Shown here piece by piece: positions 3,963-5,035 of a DNA stretch of 5,875 nt. Both the position numbers and the translations under genes were made by a program. The stretch comes from a virus (taxonomy: Duplodnaviria; Heunggongvirae; Uroviricota; Caudoviricetes). Position 1 is the stretch's first letter, and the number at the start of each line of letters is the position of its first letter. The notes beneath the pieces were generated by a model that saw only the letters and a program-made list of their open reading frames with translations, searched no databases and was not told the DNA's origin. The stretch lies in IMG/VR virus record IMGVR_UViG_2529292977_000021; one strand, 5' to 3'.

Positions 3963-4059
3963 ACCTTCCTCGGTTTAGTGTTTTTTTGCGAGTTTAGTGT
4001 TTAATAAACCATTAAGTCAAGTATTTGCTTGTTTAGTGATTACTAAAGATAATTACCAC
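3963..4059. promoter_or_regulatory. Divergent promoter/operator region (OR-like) between the cro-like gene and the repressor
   Basis: Three TTTAGTG copies (3974-3980, 3993-3999, 4032-4038) at 19 and 39 bp spacing. Palindromes GTTTAaTAAAC (3999-4009) and TTTAGTgattACTAAA (4032-4047). Leftward promoter candidate: -35 TTGACT (revcomp of 4015-4020), 18-bp spacer, -10 TAAACT (revcomp of 3991-3996). Rightward candidate: TTGCTT (4025-4030), 17 bp, GATAAT (4048-4053), ending 7 nt before ATG 4060. Confidence 0.6.
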
Positions 4060-4431
4060 ATGCAAAAAAAAGAAATTCGCCGTTTACGTCTCAAGGAGTG
4101 GTTTAAAGATAAAACTCTGCCACCCAAAGAGAAGAGCTACCTATCTCAACTAATGAGTGGGAGAGCCTCGTTTGGAGAAAAGGCTGCCAGAAGAATAGAG
4201 CAAACATACGGGATGCCGGAAGGGTATCTGGATGCGGAATACGCAGAACAACCGGGGGGTTCTCCACCACATGCAGGGTTAACGTCTAATCAACTGGAAT
4301 TATTGCAGATTTTTTCAGCCTTCCCTGAGGATGAGCAACGCCAGATAATCAGCGAGTTAAAGCAGAAAAAAGAATCAATGGAAGATCTCATAGCGAGATG
4401 GATTGCGGCGCAAAAATGCCGCCGCGCCTGA
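4060..4431 (+). CDS. paaR2: HTH (XRE/CI-type) regulator, PaaR2-like; probably the prophage repressor (RacR position), lacking an S24 peptidase domain
   Basis: 123 aa from ATG 4060; the ORF track starts at GTG 3997, which falls inside the operator region. HTH-like segment LKEWFKDK...SYLSQLMSGRASFGEKAARRIEQTYGMPEGYLD. First gene of a three-gene unit with the antitoxin and ParE. No SD, and a -10-like hexamer ends 7 nt upstream, so the mRNA may be leaderless. The paralogue number (1 vs 2) is not certain. Confidence 0.75.
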   Translation: MQKKEIRRLRLKEWFKDKTLPPKEKSYLSQLMSGRASFGEKAARRIEQTYGMPEGYLDAEYAEQPGGSPPHAGLTSNQLELLQIFSAFPEDEQRQIISELKQKKESMEDLIARWIAAQKCRRA

Positions 4432-4451
4432 GTTATAAAACCGGAGGAAAC

Positions 4452-4643
4452 ATGAATAGAGCCCTTTCACCAATGGTTTCTGAATTTGAAACCATTGAAC
4501 AAGAAAACAGTTACAACGAATGGCTGCGTGCGAAAGTAGCAACGAGCCTTGCAGATCCGCGCCCAGCAATTCCCCATGACGAAGTTGAGCGCAGAATGGC
4601 AGAACGCTTTGCTAAGATGCGCAAGGAACGGAGCAAGCAGTAA
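4452..4643 (+). CDS. paaA2: PaaA2-type antitoxin, partner of the ParE toxin
   Basis: 63 aa (MNRALSPMVSEFETIEQENSYNEWLRAKVATSLADPRPAIPHDEVERRMAERFAKMRKERSKQ); size and character match my recollection of PaaA2 from the PaaR-PaaA-ParE systems of E. coli O157:H7. GGAGG at 4443-4447 with a 4-nt spacer before ATG 4452. Stop TAA (4641-4643) is 1 nt before the toxin ATG. Confidence 0.8.
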   Translation: MNRALSPMVSEFETIEQENSYNEWLRAKVATSLADPRPAIPHDEVERRMAERFAKMRKERSKQ

Positions 4644-4644
4644 A

Positions 4645-4923
4645 ATGTTACCCGTGTTATGGCTTGAAAGCGCAGATACCGACCTAGATGATATAACTAG
4701 TTATATTGCTCGTTTCGACATAGATGCGGCTGAACGCTTATGGCAGCGATTAAGGGGTTGTGTGCTGCCGTTATCCGAACATCCGTATTTATACCCACCA
4801 AGCGACAGAGTACCTGGCTTGCGTGAGATTGTAGCCCACCCTAACTATATAATTCTATACCGCGTAACAACATCAAGCGTTGAAGTAGTAAACGTGATCC
4901 ACGCAAGACGCCAGTTTCCCTAA
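4645..4923 (+). CDS. parE2: ParE-family toxin (RelE/ParE superfamily), ParE2-like
   Basis: 92 aa from ATG 4645 (ORF track starts at an upstream in-frame ATG at 4549 that overlaps the antitoxin). Typical ParE features: W near the N-terminus, GLREIVAHPNYIILYRV, and C-terminal VVNVIHARRQ. Tightly coupled to the antitoxin stop. Confidence 0.85.
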   Translation: MLPVLWLESADTDLDDITSYIARFDIDAAERLWQRLRGCVLPLSEHPYLYPPSDRVPGLREIVAHPNYIILYRVTTSSVEVVNVIHARRQFP

Positions 4924-4940
4924 CTTTCACTACCAATAGA

Positions 4941-5005
4941 AACATAACAACCGCAACGACTTTATCAAAAGCGTTGTGTTTGTTATGTCCCGCGGTTTAG
5001 TTTTT
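4941..5005 (+). terminator. Imperfect hairpin followed by a T-rich tract downstream of parE; candidate terminator of the repressor-TA operon
   Basis: Arms aacataacaaccgcaacg (4941-4958) and cgttgtgtttgttatgt (4972-4988), about 15 of 17 positions pairing, 13-nt loop, then gtttagttttt (4995-5005). The stem is AT-rich and the T-tract is not immediately adjacent, so this is not a classic intrinsic terminator. Confidence 0.3.
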
Positions 5006-5035
5006 ACTTGACTTAAGTTTAATGTTTATTAAACT
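4993..5035 (+). promoter_or_regulatory. OL/PL-like operator-promoter: rightward promoter candidate sharing motifs with the OR-like region
   Basis: -35 TTGACT (5008-5013), 16-bp spacer, -10 TAAACT (5030-5035). Palindrome GTTTAAT-gttt-ATTAAAC (5017-5034). Shares TTGACTTAA (5008-5016 vs revcomp of 4012-4020), GTTTATTAAAC (5024-5034 vs revcomp of 3999-4009) and CGGTTTAGT (4993-5001 vs 3971-3979) with the OR-like region. Confidence 0.4.

Follow-up and report, generated by a model that had tools for sequence, protein, structure and literature searches.

The window, that is, the whole stretch of 5,875 nucleotides analysed here, contains the ydaT-ydaS/paaR2-paaA2-parE2 immunity region of the cryptic prophage CP-933P (Sp12) (Table 1). 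Between positions 3900 and 5300 it is 100% identical to the genome of E. coli O157:H7 TR01. Every one of the published immunity-region primers has an exact match in the window, which places the published EMSA fragment at 3963-4059, the footprint fragment at 3921-4109, the PR reporter fragment at 3987-4060 and the PL-gfp reporter at 4924-5041 (PMC8630535). The window is, however, a mosaic relative and not CP-933P itself, departing from that prophage at the 3′ end of ydaT and in the replication genes on the left. Neither primer R-YdaT nor primer F-CP933P has a match in the window, and none of the E. coli genomes covers at least 80% of it.

Table 1. Genes, promoters, operators and other features of the immunity region (positions in the window).
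Feature	Positions	Strand	Basis or remark
ydaT-like gene, functional CII analogue	3238-3663	-	Pfam YdaT_toxin, E 1.2e-9; F-YdaT primer at 3643-3663
YdaT operator OM, TTGATTTTCATGAATCAA	3653-3670		Perfect match to TTGATT-N6-AATCAA
ydaS-like gene, Cro analogue	3660-3962	-	Pfam YdaS_toxin 3.3e-12, HTH_3 6e-7; both ydaS primers exact
OR region, 97-bp ydaS-paaR2 intergenic region	3963-4059		Identical to published EMSA fragment; FL1/FL2 primers at 3963-3982/4038-4059
Half-site-only operator repeat (GTTTAGT + TGTTTTTTTGC)	3973-3990		GTTTAGT at 3973; contains CGGTTTAGT
PR933P	3991-4020	-	Promoter scan; -35 TTGACT (4020-4015), 18-nt spacer, -10 TAAACT (3996-3991); drives ydaS-ydaT
Strong 18-bp palindromic operator, GTTTAGTGTTTAATAAAC	3992-4009		1 mismatch to GTTTAGT-N4-ACTAAAC; over PR spacer and -10; contains GTTTATTAAAC
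PRM933P	4025-4053	+	Read from sequence; -35 TTGCTT (4025-4030), 17-nt spacer, -10 GATAAT (4048-4053)
Strong 18-bp palindromic operator, GTTTAGTGATTACTAAAG	4031-4048		1 mismatch to GTTTAGT-N4-ACTAAAC; inside PRM spacer
paaR2, CI-analogue repressor, 123 aa	4060-4431	+	Residues 1-66 identical to PDB 7nkv
paaA2, antitoxin	4452-4643	+	Pfam PaaA2 (PF21217), 1e-19
parE2, toxin	4645-4923	+	Pfam ParE_toxin (PF05016), 1.9e-16
Long hairpin, candidate terminator of PRM operon	4942-4988		Between parE2 stop and OL (lambda tIMM position)
OL palindrome, GTTTAGTTTTTACTTGAC	4995-5012		2 mismatches to GTTTAGT-N4-ACTAAAC; overlaps PL -35
PL933P	5008-5035	+	Promoter scan; -35 TTGACT, 16-nt spacer, -10 TAAACT; predicted start near 5042
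OL palindrome, GTTTAATGTTTATTAAAC	5017-5034		2 mismatches to GTTTAGT-N4-ACTAAAC; over PL spacer and -10
Conserved PL transcript leader, long form	5042-5204	+	Conservation among E. coli genomes; ends in SD-like block GGCGTTAAGGGGA
ECs_2282-family zinc-binding protein gene	5354-5554	-	NCBIfam NF047912, 1e-15; annotated in locus L001; convergent with PL
ydfC, first recognisable gene of PL (early-left) operon	5648-5866	+	Annotation of locus L001

The repressor of the region, PaaR2, is identical over its residues 1-66 to 8c3k as well as to 7nkv, the latter carrying the title 'Phage repressor protein CI'. Its sequenced N-terminus, MQKKE, agrees with the protein encoded in the window (PMC8630535). 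No Pfam match and no S24 domain were detected in PaaR2, and its C-terminal residues 72-119 are weakly DicA-like. PaaR2 is CI-like in action but, lacking the C-terminal S24 autocleavage domain, stands outside the S24 family. The genes for PaaA2 and a ParE-family toxin lie directly 3′ of this regulator gene, which makes the operon a three-component toxin-antitoxin (TA) locus. On the other side of the switch, the YdaT operator OM, recognised by a motif taken from PMC9986795, falls within the PRE933P reporter fragment, which the PRE primers place at 3635-3754. In the O157 locus L001 the annotated genes downstream of ydfC are dicF, dicB, ydfD, exo, xis and int, with an Rfam match to DicF at 8309-8360 (+) of that locus.

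The hairpin between parE2 and OL has 22-nt arms that are 82% complementary (ΔG -23.4 kcal/mol; z -5.5 on the plus and -4.4 on the minus strand) and may terminate the PRM operon. It was also considered as an AgvB-like anti-sRNA mimicking GcvB, since GTTGTGTTTG (4973-4982) equals nucleotides 80-89 of GcvB, but that match is at chance level. Chance alone would give about two 10-mers common to gcvB and the window, and sRNAs of the AgvB type are located 3′ of PR′, and therefore this reading was dropped.

Divergent promoters lie between the repressor and cro-like genes. They are borne out by the open reading frames with their Pfam matches, by a promoter scan for PR and by direct reading of PRM, and the starts of PR933P and PRM933P have been mapped by 5′ RACE, the PR start agreeing with the predicted promoter positions (PMC8630535). 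The paaR2 mRNA is leaderless, its transcription starting at the A of the ATG (A4060 in the window). PaaR2 and YdaS bind the 97-bp OR region in EMSA and DNase I footprinting, protecting approximately 78 and 65 bp, respectively (PMC8630535). Four equally spaced 18-bp repeats, only some of them well conserved, have been described in OR (PMC8630535), and judged from that description the repeat at 3973-3990 is probably IR4.

The independent scan also returned outward-facing -35/-10 pairs at both sites, including the expected second promoter beyond the repressor operon, facing away from it. The published fusion of this second promoter to gfp is active and is repressed approximately 100-fold by PaaR2 and by YdaS, as measured in vivo on the reporter with the regulators overexpressed (PMC8630535). 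The fragment includes all OL motifs of the initial annotation. In the published description, PL933P has the same -35 and -10 as PR, plus operators OL1-3 (PMC8630535). PaaR2 and YdaS presumably bind OL directly, and the position of the promoter predicts a transcript start near 5042.

With high confidence, the sites at 3963-4059 and 4993-5038 are assigned as OR and OL, the operator-promoter regions in the immunity switch of a lambdoid prophage of the CP-933P type. The OL/OR pair is correct, yet already known, as it was published in 2021 for the same sequence (Jurenas et al., mBio 2021, PMC8630535). The genes, the promoters (PR933P/PRM933P with OR, and PL933P with OL1-3), the operators and the conclusion on OL and OR are the same there as in the window. 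As stated, the finding brings very little new, the pair and the way PaaR2 and YdaS regulate it having been available since then. A reader without tools had nevertheless picked out, from the sequence, an operator pair that is genuine and backed by experiment, so that the locus serves well as a positive control of the scan. What is added here is the anatomy of the palindromes, the sequence identity with the published region and the conservation of the two-site architecture among related phages.

The pair had been noticed through short words shared by the two intergenic regions. The 9-mer TTGACTTAA, said to be mirrored between them, indeed has exactly two copies in the window, 4012-4020 (-) and 5008-5016 (+), and none of 200 whole-window shuffles gave two matches. 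With their flanks, the two copies share an inverted 12-mer, TACTTGACTTAA (4012-4023 and 5005-5016). Both copies of the 11-mer GTTTATTAAAC are likewise present, at 3999-4009 (-) and 5024-5034 (+), but its mirrored orientation is essentially undefined, because the word is a near-palindrome (GTTTA-T/A-TAAAC) of which the other strand also matches at one mismatch. The third word, CGGTTTAGT, is shared as claimed (3971-3979 and 4993-5001), but as a direct repeat on the plus strand rather than mirrored, and at non-equivalent positions: at OR it is downstream of the PR start, at OL upstream of the PL -35. Its core GTTTAGT occurs four times in the window (3973, 3992, 4031 and 4995) against 0.47 expected, always on the plus strand and always within the two intergenic regions. 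Under a stricter control, in which only the two AT-rich intergenic segments were dinucleotide-shuffled (n=2000), a shared word of at least 12 nucleotides appeared in 22 of the 2000 shuffles (P ~0.01 for the 12-mer alone) and eight shared 9-mers in one. The shared-word signal is therefore significant, though less extreme than by whole-window shuffles.

On sequence grounds, the operator behind these words is the 18-bp palindrome GTTTAGT-N4-ACTAAAC. The 11-mer represents its centre and one half, and the TAAAC end of the palindrome makes up the -10 TAAACT together with the T that follows. The 9-mer is chiefly the -35 hexamer and its flank, only ACTTGAC doubling as a degenerate operator half-site. 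The proposal that the same operator overlaps the promoters at both sites holds well for the palindrome: at two mismatches or fewer, the window has matches only at 3992, 4031, 4995 and 5017, and the OL palindrome at 5017-5034 is identical to the OR operator at 3992-4009 in 16 of 18 positions in direct orientation. Two strong palindromes per region, accompanied by half-site-only repeats, are thus seen here, as against the four inverted repeats and three 'operators' of the published description, in which the exact binding sequences of the proposed operators were left to be determined (PMC8630535).

The palindrome was also searched, at no more than two mismatches, in eight loci comprising 59.7 kb. 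It matched 25 times against 0.30 expected: 14 matches are at OR, 11 belong to a single downstream cluster per locus, and elsewhere there are none. The downstream cluster of the relatives always overlaps an outward ACTTGAC...TAAACT promoter, and the ...ACTTGAC arrangement of the OL palindrome at 4995-5012 recurs in L004-L007. L003 and L008 have one good downstream palindrome each, and the short 5.2-kb contig of L002, the closest TA-carrying relative, shows no OL. L004 and L005 encode the same repressor with different cargo genes before OL, a 342-aa protein of unknown function and SIR2, respectively, in the place of the TA pair of the window. OL thus sits distal to a variable cargo slot, whatever follows the repressor, and this bears on the lysogenic control of defence and addiction genes. 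A similarity matrix of each phage's own OR against its own OL gave no discrimination, the operators being close to palindromic and differing little among all relatives, so the claim is one of conserved architecture and not of co-variation of specificity.

The lambda-type arrangement suggested at the outset, with a cro-like ydaS, the repressor paaR2 and OR and OL flanking the repressor operon, agrees with what has been published for the identical sequence (PMC8630535). In the switch proposed, PaaR2 as the CI analogue and YdaS as the Cro analogue would recognise palindromes of the GTTTAGT-N4-ACTAAAC type. At OR, one palindrome would cover PR's spacer and -10, PR leading leftward to ydaS-ydaT, and the other would fill the PRM spacer. 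At OL, the two palindromes would cover the PL -35 and the spacer and -10, respectively, of a promoter leading away from paaR2-paaA2-parE2 into the early-left operon (ydfC-dicF-dicB-exo-xis-int). As the -10 of both PR and PL consists of the operator half-site TAAAC plus T, bound repressor would directly occlude RNA polymerase.

Whether PaaR2 octamers also join OL and OR, approximately 1.0 kb apart, in a loop across the toxin-antitoxin operon is a question on which we see roughly an even chance. It is a real possibility, falling just short of probable, that the two are genuine operators acting independently, with PaaR2 repressing PL and PR separately and with neither loop nor long-range cooperativity. 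The distance between OR and OL in the relatives indeed ranges between approximately 0.5 and 2.3 kb, no spacing being favoured, but lambda looping likewise tolerates variable distances. Each of the isolated reporter fragments of PR, PRM and PL can be fully repressed alone, but PaaR2 is reported to be octameric in solution, as is lambda CI, and at least two adjacent palindromes per site offer the geometry for an octamer formed between pairs of dimers (PMC8630535 for the reporters and the octamer). Cooperative looping was inferred in that publication as well.

It is very improbable that the shared words are mere promoter consensus (-35 TTGACT, -10 TAAACT), the two promoters being unrelated and sharing no operator. 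The longest shared word has the -35 hexamer at its centre and the 11-mer is partly -10, but GTTTAGT half-sites also lie outside the hexamers (3973, 4031 and 4995), the palindrome is confined to OR and OL in the eight loci, and the PaaR2 and YdaS footprints extend over the OR repeats (PMC8630535). The published repression of PL933P-gfp by both proteins effectively refutes this explanation. Hardly credible is a non-functional second site, a scar of partial OR-border duplication left by insertion of the paaA2-parE2 cassette: the variable cargo does mark the slot as recombinationally active, but cargo-free L007 keeps a two-palindrome outward promoter 147 bp past the repressor stop, L008, also cargo-free, keeps an outward promoter as well, and the fragment 4924-5041 is an active, regulated promoter (PMC8630535).

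Downstream of PL, a leader of approximately 165 nt beginning at the predicted start is conserved in about two-thirds of complete E. coli genomes (3718 of 5426), in heteroimmune prophages. It is nearly invariant 3′ of unrelated repressors, namely PaaR2, RacR, Tritos CI and the DicA-like protein of an Actinobacillus phage. That it is an undescribed cis-acting early-left element (acting in Rho loading or attenuation, antitermination or translational control), beyond a shared flank, is a tentative and rather unlikely reading. A structured RNA found no support in the long form, RNAalifold giving no compensatory pairs among five copies and one among 78 unique copies, and the single-sequence fold having z = +1.2. 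A leader protein or uORF was rejected: a conserved block has a 1-nt indel, and the frame from the conserved ATG (5128; second ATG 5134) runs for 54, 20 or 6 codons among copies. The known Rho terminator trac of Rac does not explain the leader, since its position is within racR, on the transcript from PRM, and not downstream of PL. When the entire window was compared with Rfam, E values up to 1 being accepted, the leader had no match and the only one returned was a chance miRNA match on the hairpin at 4942-4988, and a full-text literature search for the leader core sequence gave nothing relevant.

The region shares with lambda the divergent PR and PRM, the leaderless mRNA of the repressor, an accessory operon behind it (the TA pair here, rexA-rexB in lambda) and an outward PL past that operon with the same operators. 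The repressor and the Cro analogue act at all three promoters in both systems, and the repressor octamerises. Differently from lambda, PaaR2 lacks the S24 autocleavage domain, two strong 18-bp sites per region are found in place of three 17-bp sites, and no N gene or nutL is recognisable 3′ of PL, where the other conserved leader lies instead. The spacing of OL and OR given above also differs from that of lambda, which is about 2.3-2.4 kb. Rac (racR/ydaS-ydaT) and Qin (dicA/dicC, dicB operon) of K-12 have the same order of YdaT, a YdaS-type Cro, repressor and early-left operon, the latter with kil/dicB-type division inhibitors. Rac also has the conserved PL leader, and DicA of Qin is the protein that the PaaR2 C-terminus weakly resembles. 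The DNA-binding specificity of the Rac and Qin repressors is, however, another one, their operators are unalignable with those described here, and no TA cassette occupies the slot.

The S24-peptidase (LexA/CI-type) prophage repressors of Serratia, Yersinia and Erwiniaceae have an N-terminal DNA-binding domain 70-80% identical to that of PaaR2, and the similarity is confined to the N-terminal half. They carry a C-terminal S24 autocleavage domain, whereas PaaR2 has a short DicA-like C-terminal domain, and consequently PaaR2 is presumably not induced by RecA-mediated cleavage. Phages with such S24-type repressors (L006 and L007) have the same operator palindrome and the same layout of OR and OL, which is thus common to a repressor family with one DNA-binding domain and differing C-terminal domains.

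The two operator regions OR and OL with the repressor gene paaR2 between them are already known for this exact sequence, and the pair has been published with experimental backing for most of its parts (Jurenas et al., mBio 2021; PMC8630535). In that study of the immunity region, the starts of PR933P and PRM933P were mapped by 5' RACE, and the paaR2 mRNA was leaderless with the protein N-terminus MQKKE. EMSA and DNase I footprinting placed both PaaR2 and YdaS on the 97-bp intergenic region, over about 78 and 65 bp, respectively. Repeated 18-bp palindromes with the half-site GTTTAGTAA were also described. 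Since PaaR2 octamerises like CI, PL and OL analogues were sought by the authors, and a PL fragment cloned before gfp was repressed about 100-fold by PaaR2, and also by YdaS (PMC8630535). The Table S3 primers of that work map exactly onto the window (see table below), and every OL motif listed in the initial annotation falls inside the PL reporter. The shared-motif observation is confirmed and its OR/OL interpretation supported. In addition, a YdaT operator, TTGATT-N6-AATCAA (motif from PMC9986795), is found at 3653-3670.

Positions of genes, promoters, operators, published fragments and leader copies (window coordinates unless a locus is named)
Feature	Position	Strand	Basis or remark
YdaT	3238-3663	-	Pfam
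YdaS/HTH (Cro-like)	3660-3962	-	Pfam
PaaA2 antitoxin	4452-4643	+	Pfam
ParE toxin	4645-4923	+	Pfam
PR, TTGACT-18-TAAACT	4020-3991	-	independent promoter scan
PRM, TTGCTT, 17-nt spacer, GATAAT	4025-4030, 4048-4053	+	read from sequence
PL, TTGACT-16-TAAACT	5008-5035	+	independent promoter scan
Operator palindrome	3992-4009		over PR spacer and -10
Operator palindrome	4031-4048		PRM spacer
Operator palindrome	4995-5012		overlaps PL -35
Operator palindrome	5017-5034		over PL spacer and -10
PRE reporter	3635-3754		primer mapping
Footprint fragment	3921-4109		primer mapping
EMSA fragment	3963-4059		primer mapping
PR/PRM reporters	3987-4060		primer mapping
PL reporter	4924-5041		primer mapping
Leader	5042-5204
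Leader, L011	2501-2655		K-12 Rac
Leader, L009	2501-2659		Tritos
Leader, L010	2501-2660		Actinobacillus phage pPE4

The words shared by the two intergenic regions were largely as first described. The 9-mer TTGACTTAA is mirrored at 4012-4020 (-) and 5008-5016 (+) with exactly two copies in the window, a number reached in 0 of 200 whole-window shuffles, and it lies within a longer inverted identity, the 12-mer TACTTGACTTAA (4012-4023 and 5005-5016). The 11-mer GTTTATTAAAC is present at 3999-4009 (-) and 5024-5034 (+), as claimed; being near-palindromic, it matches both strands at each site with at most one mismatch. CGGTTTAGT is indeed shared, but its copies (3971 and 4993) have the plus strand in common, which makes it a direct repeat and not a mirrored one. 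All four copies of the core GTTTAGT in the 5875 bases are on the plus strand and within the two intergenic regions. As both regions are AT-rich, a stricter control was used, namely dinucleotide shuffles restricted to the two intergenic segments (n = 2000). A shared word of at least 12 nt then turned up in 22 of the 2000, and all eight shared 9-mers together in one. The repeats are real, and less extreme than the whole-window shuffles suggested.

Scanning the window for GTTTAGT-N4-ACTAAAC with at most two mismatches gave four matches only, all of them operator palindromes at the two regions. The palindrome next to the PL -35 ends in ACTTGAC, hence the overlap, and PR and PL alike have a -10, TAAACT, that consists of the operator half-site TAAAC and a following T. 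The outward-facing -35/-10 pairs proposed for both sites were recovered independently as TTGACT/TAAACT, and the PRM -10 ends 7 nt upstream of A4060 in the paaR2 ATG. Given the palindrome positions and the -10/half-site overlap, the three proposed operator motifs had to be reassigned: TTGACTTAA is mostly the -35 hexamer, GTTTATTAAAC makes up two-thirds of a palindromic operator, and CGGTTTAGT contains one half-site, at positions that are non-equivalent between the two sites.

For comparison, PaaR2 homologues were collected and their loci fetched. The repressors share 66% identity with PaaR2 in the TA-carrying relative L002, 50% in Photorhabdus (L003), 54% in Providencia (L004 and L005) and 45% in Klebsiella phage 5 LV-2017 (L008), and, over the matched N-terminal half, 70% and 76% in the S24-type CI proteins of Serratia (L006) and Erwiniaceae (L007), respectively. 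The OR block GTCAAG-TATTTGCTTGTTTAGT-N4-ACTAA is common to all loci, and relative to the repressor start the strong palindromes lie near -68 and -29. Altogether, 25 palindrome matches (at most two mismatches) were observed across all eight loci (59.7 kb), where composition-preserving block shuffles predict 0.30. Fourteen of them fall at OR, the other 11 form one downstream cluster in each locus, and no match lies elsewhere. In every case this cluster coincides with an outward promoter, ACTTGAC...GTTTA-N8-TAAACT. The contig of L002 ends ahead of any OL, and L003 and L008 have one good downstream palindrome only.

The two Providencia loci have the same repressor (P0013) followed by different cargo genes. 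OL follows the repressor stop by 1255 bp in L004, on the far side of a 342-aa protein (4445-5473), and by 1915 bp in L005, on the far side of a SIR2_2-domain protein (2255-3868), likely a defence gene. In L007 and L008, OL lies just about 130-150 bp past the stop. The slot between repressor and OL in otherwise equivalent prophages holds the PaaA2-ParE2 pair (window 4452-4923), the SIR2_2 protein, the 342-aa protein or nothing, OL being placed beyond the cargo in each case. By these placements, OL/PL is conserved in this repressor family and stands on the distal side of a slot with variable cargo; in lambda, the position of the TA pair is occupied by rexAB. Since nearly the same half-site is used by all relatives, it is the architecture that is conserved, and not a co-variation of specificity. 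When reverse-complemented, the PR-proximal operator at 3992-4009, GTTTAGTGTTTAATAAAC, gives exactly GTTTATTAAACACTAAAC, which has the equivalent position (3934-3951) and identical flanks (GA...C) in L006 and L007. L002 has the orientation of the window. The 18-bp imperfect palindrome appears to be flipped between the window and the S24-type relatives.

The published model is the best-supported mechanism. According to it, both PaaR2 and YdaS bind the palindromes at OR and, as predicted, those at OL; PaaR2 shuts PR and PL and, when at low level, stimulates PRM, and YdaS preferentially shuts PRM. The OL-OR distance is about 1.0 kb in the window and 0.5-2.3 kb in the relatives. A loop held by PaaR2 octamers, for which each end offers two neighbouring dimer sites, is plausible but putative, its chances being about evenly balanced. 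PaaR2 acts like CI yet is outside the S24 family, and a Pfam search with the 123-aa product of 4060-4431 matched no domain. Over residues 1-66 this product is identical to PDB 7nkv/8c3k, the PaaR2 N-terminal domain deposited as 'Phage repressor protein CI'. When PaaR2 was compared with P0061-P0120, residues 1-60 or so shared 70-80% identity with the N-terminal domain found in S24-peptidase CI/LexA-type repressors (Serratia, Yersinia, Erwiniaceae), and the operator palindrome is also used by the S24-type relatives. The C-terminal 50 residues (72-119) weakly match the DicA C-terminus (NF007257, E 1.4e-6, below the cut-off). Judged by these matches, PaaR2 has the look of a chimera of two domains.

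An imperfect 47-nt hairpin at 4942-4988 separates the parE2 stop from OL and is part of the published PL-gfp fragment. Its arms are 22 nt long, and it folds with a dG of -23.4 kcal/mol (z -5.5 for the plus strand, -4.4 for the minus strand). The hairpin could act as the terminator for the PRM operon or shield against transcription that converges from ECs_2282. Lambda tIMM stands at the equivalent position, and canonical terminators are found ahead of several other PL regions.

PL is followed by a long leader of about 165 nt, from the predicted start (about 5042) to the SD-like block GGCGTTAAGGGGA (5204), where similarity to other PL leaders ends. Of 5426 complete E. coli genomes, 3718 carry it in conserved form, where it lacks annotation. 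The leader is always just downstream of a repressor gene, the repressors being unrelated to one another: RacR (K-12 Rac), Tritos CI, the 666R9 repressor and a DicA-like protein (Actinobacillus phage, 75% identity). The copies cannot be aligned ahead of the start site and are nearly invariant beyond it, as is the core GGTTAAGTAGCCAGCCCGAGGCGTA.GAACATGACGGC; the 5' end is C-rich. The leader had no match in Rfam, its fold was not more stable than those of shuffles, and the one compensatory pair in 78 unique copies was not convincing. It has no conserved ORF and has a 1-nt indel in a conserved block, so that neither a structured RNA nor a protein is an obvious reading. Other phages have a start codon after the SD block, which the window has lost (GGGGAAACAGAGG vs. 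GGGGAAATGAGG). The next gene encodes an ECs_2282-family zinc-binding protein (5354-5554) on the strand opposite to PL, so PL transcription must run antisense through this gene before ydfC.

Other immunity types among the IMG/VR loci L135-L171 have PL regions with a short leader (e.g., L136 4000-4190, L139 9160-9345 and L153), in which CATCAA at the start site is followed by a small hairpin and then by the 3' block of the long leader, GTTCCGCYACCCCGGCGTTAAGGGGAAATGAGGTCAG. The hairpin stems ACACCGcaCGGTGT, GCACaacgGTGC and ACAACGAaccgcaTCGTTGT differ in sequence between phages with the pairing kept, and the hairpin could be a 5' stabilising element or a boxB-like site.

Genes were called from a full reading of the window and an ORF listing, with domains assigned by Pfam. 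E. coli O157:H7 strain TR01 matches the region 3900-5300 at 100% identity and is annotated beyond the immunity region with ECs_2282, ydfC, dicB, ydfD, exonuclease, xis and int; DicF RNA lies between ydfC and dicB in the O157:H7 neighbourhood. None of the E. coli genomes searched covers at least 80% of the window, which as a whole is a mosaic relative and differs from CP-933P at the 3' end of ydaT and in its replication genes. The left part (1-3240) is mosaic relative to CP-933P and includes an extra 169-aa ORF (2715-3224; ECs1072-family by genome annotation). A 402-aa replication-initiator-like ORF (1400-2608), with the acidic repeat QEQEQEQEKEQEQ encoded around 1965-2010, lies next to a DnaC/IstB-like ATPase (647-1393).
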